Assembly: GCA_003233345.1 (NCBI GenBank)
Contig: QILK01000244.1
Location: forward strand, 5,977-69,976
Length of the DNA stretch: 64,000 nucleotides
Direction: 5' to 3'
Origin: Gammaproteobacteria bacterium
Lineage (GTDB): Bacteria > Pseudomonadota > Gammaproteobacteria > SZUA-21
In this document: positions 30,885 to 41,757 of the stretch, one piece after another
Layout of the letters: every line of letters starts with the position of its first letter
Position numbering within the stretch: the stretch's first letter is position 1
Made by a program: the position numbers and the translations under genes
The notes under the pieces: generated by a model
Database searches by the model: none
The model's input: the letters and a program-made list of their open reading frames with translations, nothing else
Told to the model about the DNA's origin: nothing

Positions 30885-31760
30885 TTAGTCAAATGATTTT
30901 TTCGATTCAATAATTTTCAAAACCGTAGCAGGTAATTTTTCGGATAACTGGGAATCACGCGGTATAACATACTCTGGTAGATACGCATTTTCTGGGAATT
31001 GAAAGCTAGAGGCGGACGTAAGCATAATAGTGTTAATGTGAGTATTGTTTGAATCCGAAACTCTTAGAGCATTTATTAGTGCCAGACCATTAAGTGTTTT
31101 AAGTGATCTGCCCACTATTAGTATATCAAATTTTGTTTTTAGCAGGATTGATAGTGCCTCTAATCCATCATTGACTAACGTTATTTCTAACGGCAAATCA
31201 GATACGACATTTTTATACGCCAAAGCCATAGACATCGAAGATTCTGCAATGACAACTGATTGCGAAATTGTTAGTGGTACATTAGCAATAACATTTAATT
31301 CCTTCTCTATTGCCGTGAAATCAGGTTTAGAAGCGGTCGCTTCCATTACCGCTTTGCGTATCAGGTCAAGGTAACTAAAACATTGGTTGACAAATTTTTT
31401 ATCTACTCGGCTAAAATCGTTATTTAGTCTTTCCAAATGATCTTCAAAGTAATGGCAGATAGAGCTAACTATGGGTATACCGTGAGTTCCAGCACTACCT
31501 TTTACACTGTGTACATTTCGGTATAACTCATCAAAAGTTTCCTTCTGATTGCAATTGTCCTCAAGCGCAAGTACCAGTAATTCCTGGTCATTGCAACGTT
31601 CAGGCATTGCATCGAGAAAGCCAATTTTTAATGTTTCTAACAGTGCCTGGGCATCGCTAGTCGCCGTAGTGTTTCTATTATTCATCGTTAATTTATTTAA
31701 CCATCTTGGAAATAGCCACGCAATTACGGCCCTGATGTTTGGCTTTATAAAGAGCCTCAT
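30885..31760 (-). CDS. HPt-domain protein with degenerate receiver-like C-terminal domain
   Basis: HPt motif HSVKGSAGTHG. The C-terminal ~130 aa resembles a REC fold but lacks the usual D..MP signature. Confidence 0.55.
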   Translation of the reverse strand: MRLFIKPNIRAVIAWLFPRWLNKLTMNNRNTTATSDAQALLETLKIGFLDAMPERCNDQELLVLALEDNCNQKETFDELYRNVHSVKGSAGTHGIPIVSSICHYFEDHLERLNNDFSRVDKKFVNQCFSYLDLIRKAVMEATASKPDFTAIEKELNVIANVPLTISQSVVIAESSMSMALAYKNVVSDLPLEITLVNDGLEALSILLKTKFDILIVGRSLKTLNGLALINALRVSDSNNTHINTIMLTSASSFQFPENAYLPEYVIPRDSQLSEKLPATVLKIIESKKSFD

Positions 31761-33354
31761 CGGCGGTTTGATTTATCTTCTCGGCAGCATTATACATAGG
31801 AAAACCAGAAAGGCCCGCACTAAAGGTCACGGAAAATTCAGAATTTTCATGTGTAAAACGCATTTCCGAAAATTGCTGCCGAATTTCATTAACAACAAGT
31901 AACGCGTTATCGATATCAGTGTCAGGGAGTACTAACGCAAATTCCTCGCCGCCGTATCGACCGATACTATCGGTTTTGCGTAAACGTTGTTGCAGTAATC
32001 GCGCAAGATTTTTAAGTACGCGATCACCCATCATATGCCCGTAATTATCGTTAACTTGTTTAAAATGATCAATATCGATCATGATAAAACTGACAACAGA
32101 TTTTTGCCGCTTAGCACGTGATAACTCTGTCATAAGTTGTTGTTTTATGTGAGCATGCTTCAGCAATCCAGTTAGACTGTCTTTACTCATTAGCCCACTC
32201 AATTGGCGAGCTCGCTGTACGCGTGCTGTCACCGATAATACTAAATGTTCATCGCCAATAGGTTTATTTAAAAAATCATCACCGCCTAATCCCAAAGCGG
32301 TAAGTTGGTTTTCGAGTTTATTTTCCGTTGACAAAAAAACAATAGGAATGGTTAAATAATTATCTTGAAGCCTAATCAATTTCGCAAGTTCTAGTCCCGA
32401 GCACTCGGGCATGTGGATGTCCATTAGGATCATTTCTGGATCATGCTTGGCTATATCTTGAAAAATATTTTTTGGTTGACTCATTATACTCACTTCCATG
32501 CCTTCTTTAGTTAATATCAACGCATAATAGTCTGCGAGTATTACATCATCGTCAACAATTAAGATACGATAAGGGTCTTGTATATCGGGCGCAGTTAGCT
32601 TGTCCAGTCGGTCAGCAAGTTGATCAATATTAATTGGTTTAATAAAGTAGGCATCCCCCCCAGCACGCACGGCTTCAAGACGAACTGCAAATTCATCGAG
32701 TGATGAAGTAAAAATTACCGGTAAGTTTGGAGCGTGATGCTCATGTATACGTTGTACGATATCGATACCGGCTAAATTTCCCTCGGCGAGTACAATATTT
32801 GAAATAATGGCTGCCGGTAATCTTTCCTTGAGTGCGTTAATTAGTTCATTACCCGTGGAATATTGCTCTACTTGATAACCAAATCGCGTTAGTTGTAACG
32901 AGACTTTCTTATCCGCTTCGATATCGTCTTCTAATATGTAGATCAGAGCGCCCATTTCCTCATTATCTTTAAGCGTTGTTTCTGTGGGCGCTGGCTTATC
33001 AATTACCGCACTACCTGAGCGAGCTTCTAACATGCAAAATCGGTTTATCAGTTGCGAAACTTTATCCCATTCATCATTAGTAACGGAGATTTTATCTTTA
33101 CCCCAGTGTTTAATTAACTGTTCTATCTCGCGTGCTTTATCGCTTAGTTGGTGTAACCCAAATGTGGCACCTGAACCGACAAGACTGTGGACTAGTCTAT
33201 GTACTGTATTAAAGTCATCGCTCACACGATCGCGATCAACCACGATGTTTTGCCAAAGCAGAGAAATATCTTTAAGTTTTTCTGGCAATTGTGCTACATA
33301 GGCATCGGTTAATGCCTGAAGTTTAGCTTGTATATCTTGAGTTTTAGTCACCAT
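31693..33354 (-). CDS. HPt-REC-REC-GGDEF response regulator (diguanylate cyclase)
   Basis: N-terminal HPt (HSLVGSGATFG), two receiver domains, and a C-terminal GGDEF with an intact GGEEF motif (RYGGEEF). Confidence 0.8.
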   Translation of the reverse strand: MVTKTQDIQAKLQALTDAYVAQLPEKLKDISLLWQNIVVDRDRVSDDFNTVHRLVHSLVGSGATFGLHQLSDKAREIEQLIKHWGKDKISVTNDEWDKVSQLINRFCMLEARSGSAVIDKPAPTETTLKDNEEMGALIYILEDDIEADKKVSLQLTRFGYQVEQYSTGNELINALKERLPAAIISNIVLAEGNLAGIDIVQRIHEHHAPNLPVIFTSSLDEFAVRLEAVRAGGDAYFIKPINIDQLADRLDKLTAPDIQDPYRILIVDDDVILADYYALILTKEGMEVSIMSQPKNIFQDIAKHDPEMILMDIHMPECSGLELAKLIRLQDNYLTIPIVFLSTENKLENQLTALGLGGDDFLNKPIGDEHLVLSVTARVQRARQLSGLMSKDSLTGLLKHAHIKQQLMTELSRAKRQKSVVSFIMIDIDHFKQVNDNYGHMMGDRVLKNLARLLQQRLRKTDSIGRYGGEEFALVLPDTDIDNALLVVNEIRQQFSEMRFTHENSEFSVTFSAGLSGFPMYNAAEKINQTADEALYKAKHQGRNCVAISKMVK

Positions 33355-33733
33355 TATGTTGTTTAAATACCGTTCTTATCTGGTTGGCTAACTGCATTGG
33401 ATCAAATGGTTTGGGAATGACTTCCATTGCGCCCATTGCTAGTAAGCTTGCTACCTCATCCGTCTGCACCTTTGCCGTCATAAAGATAACAGGTGTTTTA
33501 GTCATCTCAGGTAACTTTTTTATAGCCTTAAGTGTCGTTGGGCCATCCATACCAGGCATCATCACATCCATTAGTAATAAATCGGGTTTAAAGGCAATGA
33601 CATTATCCAAAGCTTCTTGCCCTGAACTACAGACACTAAGGGTAAAGCCACCTACTGTTTCCAGGGCTATACGAGCTACTGCTTGAATATCCTGTTCGTC
33701 TTCGACATACATAATACGTTTCAATAATGACAT
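33344..33733 (-). CDS. Single-domain CheY-like response regulator
   Basis: 129 aa: DLLLMDVMMPGMDG, a conserved T/K, and 11-nt overlap with the downstream gene. Confidence 0.8.
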   Translation of the reverse strand: MSLLKRIMYVEDEQDIQAVARIALETVGGFTLSVCSSGQEALDNVIAFKPDLLLMDVMMPGMDGPTTLKAIKKLPEMTKTPVIFMTAKVQTDEVASLLAMGAMEVIPKPFDPMQLANQIRTVFKQHNGD

Positions 33734-33753
33734 TTATTTATCGTCCTGCGAAA

Positions 33754-36700
33754 TTAGACAATTTTAGCTAATGGTAATTCTGAATCTCTATCTCTATCTC
33801 TATCTAATAAATTGGTGATAGTTTGCAATAATTTTTGATTGCTGGTTGAGGATTTAAGAAGAGCCGCGCTGACTTTTTCCGCTACGTCTACCCCAATCGT
33901 ATCCGCTGAAAATATAACTACCTGGGGCTGTGATTTTGCTGATTCGATCACCGTTAGTACCTCCAAACCATGATCATCAGGTAAATCCAAATCCAATAAC
34001 ACTAGACTAAATATTTCATTGCGTAACAATTGTTTTGCCTGTGCGACTGTCTCTGCACCAACAATTTGTGCGTGCCCTTGCAAGAAAACCTCAACGACGC
34101 GACGAACCTCAGCGTTATCTTCAACATGTAATATTCGCGGGCGGCTGGTACATACAGCGTGTTGTACGGCGTTTAGTAATCGTTTTTGGTCTATAGGTTT
34201 TTCTAACCAATCGACGACACTGATTGAGCCACTGCTAATACCCTGCTTACTTTCATTGGTTTTCGCTGAAACTATCACTACCGGCAATTGGCAACTTACC
34301 AACTCCCGACGTATCTCTTTTAAAAAACTAATTCCGTCTTGCCCCGGAAGCATAATATCTAAGGTAATAGCCTGGTATACATTTGGGTTATTTTTTAGAA
34401 AATTTTTCGCCTCAGCGGTATCAGAGGCAATATCTGCGTTCAGTCCGCCAACCATCAGTATCTGTCTTATAATGGTTGCGATGTCCGTATCATCTTCAAT
34501 AATCAAGATACGTGGAGCATCTTTGTTAATAGCAAGATGCGTAGCCACCTTAGAATTATTGTCACCGACTGTAACCTTCACCTCGTTAAAATCAAGGTGG
34601 AATTTAGAACCGACTCCCTCCTCAGATTCGAAGCTAATTTTTCCCCCTAGTTTTTCCACTATTGCTTTGGAAATACTTAACCCTAATCCAGTCCCGCCAA
34701 CGGTGCGGGTATCCGTGGAATCCGATTGGGTAAACTGGTCGAATAGCCTAGGCTGGAATTCCTTCGGTATGCCAACGCCAGAATCAGTGACAGAAACTCG
34801 AACATAATCATTAAAATTGCTAATACTAATTTCAACTATTGATCCTTTAGATGAAAATTTAGCGGCGTTCGACATCAGATTTATTACAACCTGCATAAGT
34901 CGATCTTTATCTGTATATATCCAAACGTTTTTAAGTTCAGTGCTAAACGCAAATTGGACGTCGTATTGTTTCGCATAAGCTTCGTTGTCTTTAATAGCCA
35001 ACTTAAGGTAAGAGGCAAGCTCGAGATCCTGAAAGTCGAAGTTAATCTCACCCGATTCAATTTTTTGAGTATCTAAAATATCATTTATCAATAACATTAG
35101 TCGCTCAATGTTACTATTGGCGATTGCGAGCATCTCTTTGGCCGCATCTGGGAACTCACCGACGGCCCCTCCAATTAACAGACCAATTGATCCACGTACT
35201 GAGGTCAGTGGCGTTCTGAGTTCATGGCTTACGGTTGATATAAATTCATTTTTCAGTTTATTGACCCGGTATCGTTCACTGATATCACGTGTGGTTACCA
35301 AAAACCGTGGGTCTTCTCCTGCCAGTGAAATATATTGCAAAAAAATCTCGACCGGAACCAAAGTACCATTCTTATGCTGATGTGTGGTTTCCAAATTCAG
35401 CAATGGTACTTCGCCCAAAATCATCGGCTCCAATGTCTTACGAAAACGTATATCGTCATACTCACTTAGTATGTCTACGGGAGTCATATTTACCAACTCG
35501 TCATAACTGTAGCCAATTTGAATCGTTGCCCCGGCATTAACATAAAAATACTTCAGTGTCTTTGGGTGAAACATAAAGACACAATCCAGCGTTTTATCCA
35601 GTGTATTCTTAAATTGCCTGAGCACCTGCTCAGATTTAATCCGTTCGCTGATATCTCGCACCACACCCACTACTTGACGTCTTTTGGAGAGTTCCATCGG
35701 CGCAATGTTTAACGATATTGGAAACAATGAACCATCGCTACGCCTGGCTTTTAGGTGTCCATCATTACCGAGCACGAGTGTACTCGCTAGACTCGGATTG
35801 GTCGTTAGTTTCTCATGTACTTCCCGCTCAGCATCCGGCAAAAGAATGGAAACATTGCAACCGATTATATCTTCTGCCTGATATCCAAATATTTTTACCG
35901 ACGCTGAGTTAAATGTCTGGATAATTCCCTTTTCATCAATGGTAATAATAGAATCAGCAACCGTATCAAGAACCGCTCGTTGATAGGTCTCACTTTCTTT
36001 AAGCGCAATTTCAGTTATTTTTCGTTCATCAATTTCTAATTTGAGTGTACGATGCGCGCGTATATAATCGAGGGTCAAGCCAATTAACGGCGTACCATAT
36101 GCTACGATTTTCATAAAGTGGGCGATATTAAAATGATTATCGAACAAAGCAGTTGATCCAAAAGTCATGTGTAATTGAGTGACGACTTCTGGAATAGCGC
36201 TGATAACCAATGCGTGAGCAAACAAGCTAGGGCGACGCTTATATAATCGCGGGTAAATAAATAGACCGGCAAACAAAAATAGTACTAAAGGTAACGCATC
36301 GTATGGGCGTGTTATAAAAGAATTTGGAAAAGTAGTCTTAGGCAGGTAAGCAGTCGTGGCGGCGATATGTATAATAACATAGGCAATCACACCAAAAATA
36401 AGACTAACGCTGATGATGAACCCGAAACCACGTTCGCTTTTAGCTTCTTTTTTTCGGATTAATAAAATGCTAACACCTGCGATCATGATAATCGCATTAA
36501 AGGTTCGACAAATTGCCCATGTAAATGGAATAAGATCACGATTGTCAGCGACCGCAGGAATTAATCGATCAGCGGCCAATGTATGGAAGGCATCCATGCA
36601 CCCGGCCATAAAAAAAGCCACCCCGATAATGGGCGTGGTAATATCATTGGTGATTTTGTAATGACTCAACGCAAGAAAGACAACAAAAACAGCGACACAG

Positions 36701-36978
36701 AAAGCGCTCCATTCTAATAGTGTATGAACAAAAGCACCGGATAATGTATGGAAATGGGCATCAACGACCTCATAAATAGGCGCGTTTAACGCCCAGGCAT
36801 GATCCATTTTAGAACCCTGTGTTCCGAAATCGAGACCTAACATTGTTAACAAAAAGGGTAGGCTACAGGCTAGTAATATTCCAATAATTAATAAATTTGG
36901 AATTCGAGTCCCATCGCTACGAGTCGGAGTAGATACATTTTGTCTAAATCTTTCCAATTCTGGTTTCCCTAATTCCAC
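33754..36978 (-). CDS. Hybrid sensor histidine kinase (polytopic N-terminal sensor, 2 PAS, HisKA, HATPase, 2 receivers)
   Basis: H-box VSHELRTPLTSV, G-boxes GTGLGLSISK, and receiver signatures TLDIMLPGQDG and LLDLDLPDDHG. Confidence 0.85.
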   Translation of the reverse strand: MELGKPELERFRQNVSTPTRSDGTRIPNLLIIGILLACSLPFLLTMLGLDFGTQGSKMDHAWALNAPIYEVVDAHFHTLSGAFVHTLLEWSAFCVAVFVVFLALSHYKITNDITTPIIGVAFFMAGCMDAFHTLAADRLIPAVADNRDLIPFTWAICRTFNAIIMIAGVSILLIRKKEAKSERGFGFIISVSLIFGVIAYVIIHIAATTAYLPKTTFPNSFITRPYDALPLVLFLFAGLFIYPRLYKRRPSLFAHALVISAIPEVVTQLHMTFGSTALFDNHFNIAHFMKIVAYGTPLIGLTLDYIRAHRTLKLEIDERKITEIALKESETYQRAVLDTVADSIITIDEKGIIQTFNSASVKIFGYQAEDIIGCNVSILLPDAEREVHEKLTTNPSLASTLVLGNDGHLKARRSDGSLFPISLNIAPMELSKRRQVVGVVRDISERIKSEQVLRQFKNTLDKTLDCVFMFHPKTLKYFYVNAGATIQIGYSYDELVNMTPVDILSEYDDIRFRKTLEPMILGEVPLLNLETTHQHKNGTLVPVEIFLQYISLAGEDPRFLVTTRDISERYRVNKLKNEFISTVSHELRTPLTSVRGSIGLLIGGAVGEFPDAAKEMLAIANSNIERLMLLINDILDTQKIESGEINFDFQDLELASYLKLAIKDNEAYAKQYDVQFAFSTELKNVWIYTDKDRLMQVVINLMSNAAKFSSKGSIVEISISNFNDYVRVSVTDSGVGIPKEFQPRLFDQFTQSDSTDTRTVGGTGLGLSISKAIVEKLGGKISFESEEGVGSKFHLDFNEVKVTVGDNNSKVATHLAINKDAPRILIIEDDTDIATIIRQILMVGGLNADIASDTAEAKNFLKNNPNVYQAITLDIMLPGQDGISFLKEIRRELVSCQLPVVIVSAKTNESKQGISSGSISVVDWLEKPIDQKRLLNAVQHAVCTSRPRILHVEDNAEVRRVVEVFLQGHAQIVGAETVAQAKQLLRNEIFSLVLLDLDLPDDHGLEVLTVIESAKSQPQVVIFSADTIGVDVAEKVSAALLKSSTSNQKLLQTITNLLDRDRDRDSELPLAKIV

Positions 36979-37216
36979 TTATTGGTTAGAGTCTCACTTG
37001 TTATTTACATTTTTGATTAGCCAAGGACGTAAATAGATGGAGAAATAATAGGTGTACAGCCAGTGTCAGTTATGCACACTTAATGCCATTTATAGGCAAT
37101 TGAATTTAGAAATTCTGTCATATCGAAGCGCCCGGATTCAAGTTAGAAAACTGCTCTATGGCCGTGGCAGGATTTAGAATTTTTGTTCGATATGGAGCAA
37201 ACTGAAGGGTATAGCG

Positions 37217-37258
37217 CTGTCATTTTATATCGAACGGGAAAATATCAGGATTAGAGTT
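37217..37258. repeat. 42-bp direct repeat copy A (CTGTCATTTTATATCGAACGGGAAAATATCAGGATTAGAGTT)
   Basis: About 90% identical to the copy at 39070-39112. The two copies bracket the genes at 37385-39010. Confidence 0.55.
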
Positions 37259-37384
37259 AATGTGTCCTCGATAATTTTTATTTAATATGACTGTTTACAT
37301 TTAATTTTCCTTACCCTATCCTGTTTATCTACACTAGAACCGCCTAATAAATTTTGTTTCCAGGTATATTGTAGACGGAGCAGT

Positions 37385-38059
37385 ATGATAAAAAGGATAA
37401 TTTCACTTTCAATAATAGTGCTACTTATTGGTTGTAATGTCGCTTTCGATTCCGCCTTATCATTACCCTCTGATAGTAGTAAACCTGATAGTAAGCTTAT
37501 GGGCACTTGGTATGCAGGTAGTGGCAAACCGTTTATAGGTTATTTGATCAGTGTCGGCACGCCTGTAGGTGATCCTCCTGCAAAAGTAACTATGGGTATT
37601 AATTTTAGTCTTTACGGTGATGATGGTTCGCTGATTCCGGCACAATATTGGGGTTACACATCGAAAATTAATAATGAGCGTTATTTGGTGATACTGTTTA
37701 AGCCTGTTAAGTATCACTTGTCAGGAGGTTTGTTTAACGGATTAAGTAAAAAGAAACTTTTAGCTTATATTTTTAAATATCAGCTAAAAAATAACAAACT
37801 CGTTATTAGTTGGCCTGATTCCGGTAAGATTGCCAGGGATTTAAAAAATGGTATTTTTAAATACGTAAAGGATAAAAATGATAAATCGGGTATTGACGCA
37901 ACCATTATACACACTGGTTCTGAAGAGTTAGTAGAATATTTTAAAAATAATACTAATCGTATATTTGATAAAGTACTTAACAGCAAGCGTCAGGAAGTAA
38001 TAGAATTAACCCGTTTAAATTTGGGTACAAAAACACAAAAGTTAAAAAAGGGGAAATAG
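37385..38059 (+). CDS. Lipoprotein, unknown function
   Basis: Signal peptide with lipobox LIGC. 224 aa. Confidence 0.5.
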   Translation: MIKRIISLSIIVLLIGCNVAFDSALSLPSDSSKPDSKLMGTWYAGSGKPFIGYLISVGTPVGDPPAKVTMGINFSLYGDDGSLIPAQYWGYTSKINNERYLVILFKPVKYHLSGGLFNGLSKKKLLAYIFKYQLKNNKLVISWPDSGKIARDLKNGIFKYVKDKNDKSGIDATIIHTGSEELVEYFKNNTNRIFDKVLNSKRQEVIELTRLNLGTKTQKLKKGK

Positions 38060-38083
38060 CTATTTCATGAGGGAGTATTTATC

Positions 38084-39010
38084 ATGAGTAAATACGTAAT
38101 TGAAGCTCGATCAATGGTCGTGAAAAACACATTCGGTATTGGCAGGCATAACTATTGGGTGATGCGTGAAGAAGGTACAAAAGGCAGCGACGGTGTTGTT
38201 GCCGAGCTTCATGGCATGGCTTATAACCGTAATACAAAAGAATATGTAACGATAGGTACAAGCGAGAAAGTTCATTCTCTGGGAGGGTTGCATATTGTCC
38301 ATGGTTATACTTATGCGAAACAGGTCCCAAAGCATCTTATTGATAAAACGCCCCAAGAACGCCGCATACATTCACTAATCGCCGATAATCAAAAATCTCA
38401 GGTAGTCTTTACCGGCAGTTTTGAAGACGTTAAGAAACGCTGGGCACAAGCAATAATGGGATCAAAAGAATTAAGTAATAAAGATCTAAATTATCCCCTG
38501 CTAGGGATTCAAGGGAAACCCGAACAGCTGGTTAACAGCAACTCCGCCTATGCTACATTTGCTGAGCTTATGGGTGTTAAAATACAGCGTTTCCCGGGCT
38601 ATGAGCCGGGTATAAAAAACCGCGTACTTTCACCAGAGCGAATCGACCAGCTTAAGTACCGGCCACAACAATCGATAAATCAAAAAAATATACACAGCAG
38701 CGTAGATCCAATTGCATACAATTCATTAACACACCACGAAAAACAGAATATCGCACCGGGTGAATTATGGAAAAAACTTGGTTTCTCCCCAAAAACCGAT
38801 GTGAAATCACAAGTGTATAATTTTGAAAACACAAAAGGCAATATAAAACAAATCGCAATGTATTCTTCAGATTCTGTAAAAGCGCTAAATACTGCCGATC
38901 GACGCGATCCCACACAAGTCCTAAATGATTATTATCAACAAATTGCTAAAAACCCCGAAAAAAATACCTCGAAACCTAAAAGACAGGATCAAGGGGTTGA
39001 CTATGTTTAA
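38084..39010 (+). CDS. Hypothetical cytoplasmic protein (308 aa), no recognisable domain
   Basis: A strong ORF 24 nt after the lipoprotein gene, preceded by the SD-like GAGGGAG. No signal peptide. Confidence 0.5.
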   Translation: MSKYVIEARSMVVKNTFGIGRHNYWVMREEGTKGSDGVVAELHGMAYNRNTKEYVTIGTSEKVHSLGGLHIVHGYTYAKQVPKHLIDKTPQERRIHSLIADNQKSQVVFTGSFEDVKKRWAQAIMGSKELSNKDLNYPLLGIQGKPEQLVNSNSAYATFAELMGVKIQRFPGYEPGIKNRVLSPERIDQLKYRPQQSINQKNIHSSVDPIAYNSLTHHEKQNIAPGELWKKLGFSPKTDVKSQVYNFENTKGNIKQIAMYSSDSVKALNTADRRDPTQVLNDYYQQIAKNPEKNTSKPKRQDQGVDYV

Positions 39011-39069
39011 ATCGGTGGTGACAGTGGGCGACCCCGTTTTGCCTCTTTAATAATTAGTTCACAATAACA

Positions 39070-39112
39070 CTGTGATTTAATATCGAACGGGAAAAATATC
39101 AGAATTGTAGTT
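39070..39112. repeat. 42-bp direct repeat copy B
   Basis: CTGTGATTTAATATCGAACGGGAAAAATATCAGAATTGTAGTT. See copy A. Confidence 0.55.
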
Positions 39113-39403
39113 TGTGGTTCCTTGATTGTCCTTTTGATTATCCTATACTTACGTTAAGCGGACTTAGCTTAGTCATCCCGAGTTTCGCTACCATGGATGA
39201 AATAAAAAAACGTTATGCACTTAGTGTTGGCAAAACTATTTTCGTATCTCGCTTACTGCATTACAGAATATTATAAATGAGTCTGAGAACACTATAAGAC
39301 GATATGGGCTCTATCCACTCACTGTGGATACAATTGTGAACCCAAAAATTTCAAACAACCATGTTAATCCATAATGATTGCTATTATGGTGTATTGGTTA
39401 TGA

Positions 39404-39856
39404 TTGATTTCACATAGGAGAATACGATTAATGGACAGAAGTGTGTTAATTAGTTTGTTTTCTTCAGGAGACTGGAAAGATCGATTTGAAGCCTGTCTGC
39501 AAGAAGGTTTGGAAATCGATCAATGTTCAGTAGACGATGGCTGGTCGTTGGTGCATTTTGCTGTTGAAGCAGAAAACTATGCCGCCGTTAATTGGTTGTA
39601 TTCTCGCGGCGCAGATCTCAATGCTCAGGATGAGAGCGGCAATACCGCCTTGCATTATGCTGTGCAAGCCGATGTTGAAATGTCGCTGCAAATCGATTCA
39701 ACAGTCGATTTTCGCGGCACCGGATTTTTGTTGTCACTGGGTGCTGATCCGCGAATAAAAAATTCGACTGGCTTGACGGTGCAAGATATCGCTGCCAGCT
39801 TTGGCGACACTATTTTAATGGAATATAAAACGCTGGAAATGGCAAAAGGGCTCTAA
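39404..39856 (+). CDS. Ankyrin-repeat protein
   Basis: About 3 ANK repeats (GWSLVHFAVEAENYAAVNWLYSRGADLNAQDESGNTALHYAV). The true start is possibly the Met at residue 10. Confidence 0.7.
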   Translation: MISHRRIRLMDRSVLISLFSSGDWKDRFEACLQEGLEIDQCSVDDGWSLVHFAVEAENYAAVNWLYSRGADLNAQDESGNTALHYAVQADVEMSLQIDSTVDFRGTGFLLSLGADPRIKNSTGLTVQDIAASFGDTILMEYKTLEMAKGL

Positions 39857-39888
39857 AGTGTTTAGCCGTAGCGGAGAGTAGATCAAAT

Positions 39889-40497
39889 CTAGTAGATCAG
39901 CATCGTTTTTTTGGACAAATGCACGCTAGGCACCTGTCTGTCAAAGGTTAAATAATTAAGGTTTGGATGTAGTGTGCGGATCAAATCCATATCGCGCTGA
40001 ATTTTATCCTGTACGGAGAATCTTACTGCACCCTGGTATCGCAAATCAAATTTGATATTTCCCAGATAGGCCGTCAATCCAGGATAAATCCGAAAATGTA
40101 AAGCGTGATTACTATTGACGTTTTGTCTTAACGGCATACCCTTGTAGCGATGGCTCAAGGTATAGATGCCCGGGTCCAGTTTTATTAAATAGATTCTTGA
40201 ATTATGCAATATAGAGTGGCTAAATACAGATGTTCTTAATCCTGTCGATGTATTTAAAAGAGGTTGCGTGATAACACTGGCTACTTCTCCTTTTTCGTTT
40301 TTTAAAACCAGGTCAATACCCGTATTATATTTTCCTTTTTTAGAAATGGTTAATAACAATAAACCATATTTTTCTTTGCCGCTAAACTGGATTCCTTGTC
40401 GCTGACTGTCGTCAGGTGATTTGGTGCTGATACTTTTTTGTTGGCAGGCTGGTATCATTATCACAAGAAACGCGATGAGCAATAGTTGCTTGGCCAT
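39889..40497 (-). CDS. Secreted protein, paralog family A (shares C-terminal PGLTAYLGNIKFD module with 45019-45639)
   Basis: Signal peptide. The conserved C-terminal block aligns with the other copy. Confidence 0.5.
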   Translation of the reverse strand: MAKQLLLIAFLVIMIPACQQKSISTKSPDDSQRQGIQFSGKEKYGLLLLTISKKGKYNTGIDLVLKNEKGEVASVITQPLLNTSTGLRTSVFSHSILHNSRIYLIKLDPGIYTLSHRYKGMPLRQNVNSNHALHFRIYPGLTAYLGNIKFDLRYQGAVRFSVQDKIQRDMDLIRTLHPNLNYLTFDRQVPSVHLSKKTMLIY

Positions 40498-41529: not shown

Positions 41530-41556
41530 AAAAGGCTAGACTAAGGCTGTTTTAAC

Positions 41557-41757
41557 CACCTAAAGGCGATAAAAATTTACAGGCTGAATAGCGACTTTAG
41601 GGTTTTTATTTTCCTAAAGGCATTAACTATTTGTGGGTGAATGAGGTACTTTAGATTTTTATTTTCCTAAAGGCGTTAAATATTTGGGGGTAAATCAGGT
41701 GCTTTAGTTTTTTATTTTCCTAAAGGCGTTATATTTTTCTGCGCCAATCACCTGGTG
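41557..41757. repeat. Tandem array of about 3.5 copies of a 53-56-bp repeat (CTTTAGnTTTTTATTTTCCTAAAGGCGTTAAATATTTGGGGGTAAATCAGGTG)
   Basis: Direct tandem units at 41595, 41649 and 41702, with a partial unit starting at 41557. Intergenic, just after slyX. Confidence 0.7.

Follow-up and report, generated by a model that had tools for sequence, protein, structure and literature searches.

What is a two-gene unit flanked by a direct repeat doing immediately upstream of an ankyrin-repeat gene? The question is raised by a stretch of 64,000 nucleotides (nt) from contig QILK01000244.1 of a Gammaproteobacteria bacterium of the SZUA-21 lineage (assembly GCA_003233345.1), hereafter the window, in which a lipoprotein gene and a gene for a 308-residue protein are followed by an ankyrin-repeat gene (Table 1). 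An earlier sequence-only reading of this region had described two repeats enclosing a lipoprotein gene and a 308-residue protein without a known domain, and this is what we find. We rate the chances as somewhat better than even that 37385-39010 constitutes a two-gene immunity/effector module, with the repeat serving as shared regulatory DNA.

The head of the 308-residue protein and its family

The 308-residue protein lacks a signal peptide and gave no match in Pfam (E <= 0.1), NCBIfam, PADLOC or PHROG; likewise, the libraries of defense systems and phage proteins returned nothing for the pair that it forms with the lipoprotein. A word-indexed search with the protein recovered eight relatives only, and a profile search with its N-terminal part, the head, across 1.84 billion cluster representatives retrieved 364 clusters (50% identity, E <= 1e-3). 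What is conserved among these is the first ~190 residues, which always begin at residue 1-5 (MxxY[ST]IEARS) and precede a secretion module, the placement expected of a passenger domain. The head is characterized by the motifs IEARS, H22, AELHG, RW, YP, NSNSAY and EPG, and the residues kept in at least 80% of ~130 members (I6, E7, R9, H22, E41, H43, G44, W120, Y137, N151-S-N-S154, M163, P175 and G176) are all retained in the window protein. Modeling the protein in search of toxin folds, as had been proposed in the sequence-only reading, yielded a confident AlphaFold2 model of the head (pLDDT about 90 for residues 1-140) but no identification, as Foldseek found no similar fold in the PDB or BFVD. 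The sequence profile of the head also matched nothing in the PDB, and a plasmid collection searched with the head contained no match.

Its relatives display the head in front of two kinds of secretion module. Among the 150 best-scoring members, RTX nonapeptide repeats follow the head in 11, in proteins of up to 2808 residues (e.g., P0030, P0043, P0086 and P0121); such repeats are a mark of type I secretion substrates. In 16 of the same 150, a Pfam scan places PF20410 (X-Tfes_XVIPCD), a C-terminal domain of ~120 residues, after the head, with a best E-value of 1.6e-33, and a custom XVIPCD profile recognizes 21 of 154 head-family members. Consistent with this, the NCBIfam match of head-family members is to the XVIPCD part of the model for the Smlt3024 effector, the cluster of one member (P0009, Xanthomonas sontii / X. 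sacchari) is annotated as an 'XVIPCD domain-containing protein', and another (P0010) stems from Stenotrophomonas koreensis. The XVIPCD is the signal through which the coupling protein VirD4 recruits the antibacterial X-Tfe effectors to a bacteria-killing type IV secretion system (PMC8740702; PMC6536674). As judged by the profile search, then, the window protein shares a homologous head with XVIPCD-bearing proteins of Xanthomonas and Stenotrophomonas and with RTX-bearing proteins. The head stands N-terminal to two different secretion modules and is therefore a passenger, most plausibly a toxin.

We posit that the 308-residue protein is a secreted antibacterial toxin, in which the ~190-residue head would be the active part, probably directed at a target in the cell envelope, and the ~110-residue tail is probably a delivery or recognition part. 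The tail (residues ~196-308) is of a type of its own that is common to P0003, P0007, P0044 and P0064, and the tails of P0003, P0007 and P0044 end in Glu-rich stretches.

Lipoprotein genes upstream of the head family

The gene directly upstream of that for the 308-residue protein, separated from it by 24 nt, codes for a protein (MIKRIISLSIIVLLIGC...) with a complete lipoprotein signal, namely a K/R-rich n-region and a hydrophobic h-region followed by the lipobox. Scans of the Pfam and NCBIfam libraries assigned it to no family, and relatives are limited to the same protein of a related strain and an ortholog with 76% identity, encoded on a contig of 731 nt (L091). On that contig, the lipoprotein ortholog is followed by a gene starting MTNYVIEARSMGVKNTF..., which is the ortholog of the gene for the 308-residue protein. 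Positions 1-55 of the same contig are Illumina adapter sequence (…GTGACTGGAGTTCAGACGTGTGCTCTTCCGATCT); because the contig begins with this adapter, its first gene has been given an artefactual start.

The arrangement recurs across the family. Seven loci with a head-family member were compared (the window, L091, L001, L002/L003, L093, L094 and L095), and a lipoprotein gene lies directly upstream of the head-family gene in six of them: the window (224 residues), L091, L001 (188 residues), L002/L003 (185 residues), L093 (194 residues) and L095, where the lipoprotein measures 139 residues after extension of the open reading frame to MVSARRAALCALAALIIGGC. L094 is the only examined locus without one. 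Some of these loci carry duplications of their own. At L002, the lipoprotein partner gene is tandemly duplicated (926-2130), and the duplicates are separated (1497-1545) by a piece of the 5′ end of the effector gene, GTG TCG CAA TAT ACC ATC GAA GCA CG, encoding VSQYTIEAR, which makes this a local duplication of the immunity/effector junction. At L001, positions 1-540, upstream of the lipoprotein/effector pair, hold several copies of a ~115-nt unit (GGCGTTGGGACATACAACGCACC...GTGCGAAGCACACCAAAGGATTTACGG).

The closest known parallel is offered by the X-Tfe/X-Tfi pairs, such as XAC2609/XAC2610 of X. citri and Smlt3024/Smlt3025 of S. maltophilia (PMC6536674, PMC8740702). Genes for X-Tfi proteins are usually found upstream of, and probably share a transcript with, those for their X-Tfe, an X-Tfi whose effector targets structures in the periplasm bears a signal peptide plus lipobox, and many X-Tfe N-termini have no identifiable domain (PMC6536674). 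The window pair resembles these in the homology of its head to the heads of Xanthomonas and Stenotrophomonas XVIPCD-bearing proteins, in the partner gene directly upstream whose product has a signal peptide and lipobox, and in its location away from any secretion locus, as is the case for most X-Tfe genes. It differs in that the effector candidate has no XVIPCD and ends instead in a ~110-residue tail of another type. It also differs in its host, an uncultured low-G+C gammaproteobacterium for which the nearest genomes found by a scan with the neighboring hybrid kinase are metagenome-assembled genomes, 64-67% identical in this protein and sharing none of the flanking genes of the window. Because the defining test, the presence of an XVIPCD, failed, we do not file the window protein as an X-Tfe, and by its sequence it is not one in the strict sense.

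Type I-secreted RTX exoproteins use the same head as an N-terminal passenger, ahead of C-terminal Ca-binding nonapeptide repeats, and differ from the window protein in having these repeats. Type VI pairs (e.g., Tse1/Tsi1), to which the logic of X-Tfe/X-Tfi pairs has been compared (PMC6536674), would be similar by analogy in combining an envelope-acting toxin that has no signal peptide with an adjacent gene for a periplasmic immunity protein. The window protein departs from them in having no PAAR, MIX or VgrG marker, in that its immunity gene comes first, and in that no homology was found.

We accordingly read the lipoprotein as most likely a periplasm-facing, outer-membrane-anchored immunity protein, the gene of which is probably co-transcribed with that of the 308-residue protein. 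The sequence-only reading had itself anticipated an effector/immunity pair at this locus, made up of the ankyrin-repeat protein and an adjacent protein without known domains. A pair probably exists, but its partners would be the lipoprotein and the 308-residue protein: it is relatives of the latter that bear XVIPCD or RTX modules, it is a lipoprotein gene that recurs upstream of them, and no ankyrin gene adjoins the family at the other loci.

The direct repeat and its possible role

The repeats had been reported as near-identical 42-bp sequences, the second of them lying 5′ of the ankyrin-repeat gene. They are present and extend to ~63 nt, although identity in the 42-nt span is ~86%, which makes 'near-identical' slightly generous. 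Alignment of 37211-37272 with 39064-39126 gives 50 identities in 63 positions (79%) with a single 1-nt indel, one additional A in an A-run of copy 2. The exact 16-mer ATATCGAACGGGAAAA occurs in the whole window at positions 37227 and 39080 only; a 16-mer alone is not significant in 64 kb, but blastn of the repeat against the window gives an E-value of 9e-10, and an nhmmer profile built from both copies recovers no more than these two, each at an E-value of about 2e-17, with the best further hit at E = 2. Outside the 63 nt, similarity does not exceed that of shuffled sequence, and there is no trace above that level of a decayed second lipoprotein gene 3′ of copy 2. Each copy lies between genes, both have the same orientation, and their starts are 1853 nt apart; copy 1 ends 112 nt before the ATG of the lipoprotein gene and copy 2 about 305 nt before the corrected ATG of the ankyrin gene.

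Within the repeat, a core of 22 nt shows zero substitutions between the copies, and the flanks are ~70% identical. The 9-mer ATATCGAAC of this core has three exact occurrences in 64 kb, all in this region, of which two are the repeat copies themselves and the third lies inverted 33 nt upstream of copy 1; a further copy with one mismatch, ATATCGAAG, has the same CTGTCAT prefix as the repeat. By our rough estimate (p about 0.08), this clustering is only suggestive. In the related strain, the contigs L096 (96.4% identity over 35450-38232 of the window) and L097 (93.9% identity over 39099-40484) have the same arrangement as the window; copy 1 carries two substitutions in L096 (G37215A and T37243C), and the 3′ part of copy 2 is conserved in L097.

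Our best guess, held with modest confidence, is that the repeat is a shared promoter-proximal regulatory segment, in line with the duplicated promoter/operator that the sequence-only reading had named as one possibility; we favor it because of the position and orientation of the copies. The 63 nt would be duplicated promoter-proximal DNA, placed just 5′ of the promoters predicted for the module and for the ankyrin gene, and the core, ATATCGAACGGGAAAA(A)TATCAG, would most likely be bound at both places by one transcription factor, through which the module and the ankyrin unit are switched together. In the search for promoter motifs that the sequence-only reading had proposed, a weak sigma-70-like match follows each copy; such matches are not enriched relative to shuffled sequences. 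When inspected by eye only, with no tool run, none of the sigma-54, sigma-28 and sigma-E/ECF consensus sequences fits the repeat. A structured RNA (riboswitch, small RNA or leader) was considered and rejected, with no Rfam match at the gathering score and mere noise at E <= 1, and with folding z-scores of +0.25 to +1.3 for both copies on both strands, which are not better than those of shuffles. The 290-nt leader of the ankyrin gene has a folding z-score of -1.35 and no Rfam match.

Alternative readings and the neighborhood

A number of observations weigh against an immunity/effector module under a shared regulatory segment. The tail of the window protein was tried as a divergent XVIPCD and rejected, as hhalign aligns nothing between it and 14 XVIPCD tails and Pfam is silent, and RTX repeats (HemolysinCabind) gave no match in the protein either. 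The AlphaFold2 model of the lipoprotein, at a pLDDT of 41, is unusable. At least three groups can be told apart among the upstream lipoproteins, and homology between these groups is undetectable; the signal peptide alone aligns between the window lipoprotein and those of the other loci. This would be unusual if all of them neutralize the same head, and it runs counter to a simple one-immunity-one-toxin picture; the lipoproteins may be independent solutions or may co-vary with the variable tails. No secretion-system genes, including vir genes such as would encode the VirB1-11, large VirB7 and VirD4 proteins of the bacteria-killing type IV system, occur among the ~35 open reading frames scanned in the window, which is uninformative because X-Tfe genes are usually scattered in the genome, away from the secretion locus (PMC6536674). 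As for the repeat, there is no third copy in the window by 16-mer search, blastn or nhmmer; the substitution-free run of the core is of marginal significance (p about 0.07, a rough estimate of ours); the two copies differ by 26 nt in how far the core lies from the predicted -10 hexamer; and the T37243C change of the related strain falls inside the core. A scan of metagenome contigs with the core gave eight matches, which we take to be chance because their flanks are unrelated.

The ankyrin gene starts at the ATG at 39431, behind a good AGGAG ribosome-binding site, and its product, identical to the database protein P0157, carries two or three ankyrin repeats. Apart from the same protein of the related strain, it has a single relative, which is encoded on a contig of 576 nt and is 59% identical to it. 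Its matches to Legionella Ank effector models are to the generic repeats only, with scores far below the cut-offs. No ankyrin gene stands beside a head-family member at L001-L003 or L093-L095, and the one in the window is linked to the module only through the shared upstream 63 nt. The interval from copy 2 to the ankyrin start (39127-39430) is unusually long (~300 nt) and 96% conserved in the related strain; a short open reading frame of 27 codons (ATG at 39193, MDEIKKRYALSVGKTIFVSRLLHYRIL) lies within it. Convergent with the ankyrin gene is a second orphan lipoprotein gene (39889-40497, minus strand), whose 202-residue product has the lipobox IPAC and no family match in any library scanned, and which is conserved in the related-strain contigs L097 and L098.

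Three other accounts of the locus have to be set beside the module with its shared regulatory segment. The repeats might be recombination boundaries, attL/attR-like or left by a homology-mediated cassette swap, that arose when the module was inserted or duplicated 5′ of the ankyrin gene and have no regulatory role. Direct repeats that bracket exactly one complete module would be accounted for in this way, exchange of effector/immunity modules is common, a module of this kind has undergone local tandem duplication at L002, and the G+C content of the lipoprotein gene (0.33-0.36) is below that of its neighbors (~0.40). Against this, the ~35 open reading frames scanned within and beyond +/-15 kb include no integrase, transposase or recombinase, the window has no tRNA, the repeat forms no hairpin or attC-like structure, and its copies, at 79% identity, are not exact duplicates and agree best in the core. 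The module is, moreover, kept in the ~96%-identical strain and in a ~77%-identical contig, and an empty site was not found, in very little comparative sequence. We regard this account as unlikely, and the suggestion in the sequence-only reading of recombination sites around a cassette gains no support from what surrounds the repeats. A slightly lower probability goes to the repeat being a functionless remnant of an old local intergenic duplication, kept by chance. Such an origin would agree with the presence of just two copies, to which neither the window nor the metagenome scan adds another, with a level of conservation in the related strain that is no higher inside the repeat (2 changes in 63 nt) than across the remaining intergenic region, and with the marginal statistics for a constrained core; the similar placement of both copies relative to the downstream gene start and predicted promoter, the extra 9-mer copies in the first intergenic region and the 22-nt run without substitutions speak against it.

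We consider it improbable that the 308-residue and ankyrin proteins are host-directed effectors of an intracellular or amoeba-associated bacterium (e.g., Dot/Icm-type substrates), co-regulated via the repeat, with the lipoprotein an unrelated neighbor. The richness of the window in TPR and ANK genes, its G+C content of ~39%, the weak partial matches of the ankyrin protein to the Legionella models, confined to generic repeats, and the Glu-rich ends of the P0003, P0007 and P0044 tails could be cited for it. The window, however, has no Dot/Icm genes, no ankyrin gene accompanies the family elsewhere, and the use of the head by antibacterial effectors of the type IV system, together with the lipoprotein gene upstream of it at six of the seven loci, fits an envelope-acting antibacterial toxin.

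The genes around the module are those of an ordinary chromosome, including PBP1A, PpnN, P450, GGDEF/EAL proteins, CspA, SlyX, a DsrE-like protein and TPR proteins. Divergent from copy 1 is an operon-like run on the minus strand (30885-36978) that encodes a MASE3-PAS hybrid histidine kinase with two receiver domains, a single-domain receiver, an Hpt-REC-GGDEF protein and an Hpt/REC protein, and that looks like a c-di-GMP phosphorelay without a DNA-binding output domain. Just 3′ of slyX, a tandem array (41550-41740) comprises about 3-4 units of 53 nt, each with a hairpin-like CTTTAG...TTTTATTTTCCTAAAGG element (TRF: period 53, 2.7 copies, 88% matches).

Table 1. Positions in the window of the module, the repeat copies and associated elements
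Feature	Position	Strand	Remarks
Hybrid sensor kinase gene	33754-36978	-	divergent from copy 1
9-mer copy with one mismatch, ATATCGAAG	37120-37128	+	CTGTCAT prefix as in the repeat
Inverted exact 9-mer, ATATCGAAC	37185-37193	-	upstream of copy 1
Repeat copy 1, ~63 nt	about 37210-37272	+	between the divergent hybrid sensor kinase and lipoprotein genes
Sigma-70-like match TTTACA-17-TATCCT	37294-37322	+	downstream of copy 1; prediction only
224-residue lipoprotein	37385-38059	+	proposed periplasmic immunity protein; signal peptide, lipobox L-I-G-C
308-residue protein	38084-39010	+	residues 1 to ~192 toxin-like head; ~196-308 separate tail
Repeat copy 2, ~64 nt	about 39063-39126	+	52 nt past the stop codon of the 308-residue protein gene
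Sigma-70-like match TTGATT-16-TATACT	39122-39149	+	-35 hexamer overlaps the 3′ end of copy 2; prediction only
141-residue ankyrin-repeat protein	39431-39856	+	no signal peptide; separate unit

A bolder picture, which we put forward as speculative and rather doubtful, is that the head is a new antibacterial enzyme fold, with conserved E7, H22, E41 and H43 and the NSNS motif, that has been plugged into at least three delivery routes (XVIPCD with the bacteria-killing type IV system, RTX with type I secretion and the new ~110-residue tail). In such a picture, the tail would be the signal of a further, so far unrecognized effector-export pathway in non-Xanthomonadales, and the 63-nt element an operator co-controlling the weapon and the ankyrin gene.

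The repeat is a small candidate for a shared operator and of local interest only. The main result, beside the finding from which we set out, is a toxin-head family common to X-Tfe effectors and RTX proteins that appears here with a third kind of tail. This provides a functional handle on an unnamed and sizeable family (364 clusters), and the conserved E7, R9, H22, E41, H43 and N151-S154, together with the lipoprotein partners, make its toxicity and immunity straightforward to probe. By homology, the family would serve as a warhead in RTX exoproteins and in the bacteria-killing type IV system that Xanthomonas and Stenotrophomonas possess; its occurrence beyond those lineages, joined to a different tail, may point to a further route of delivery.

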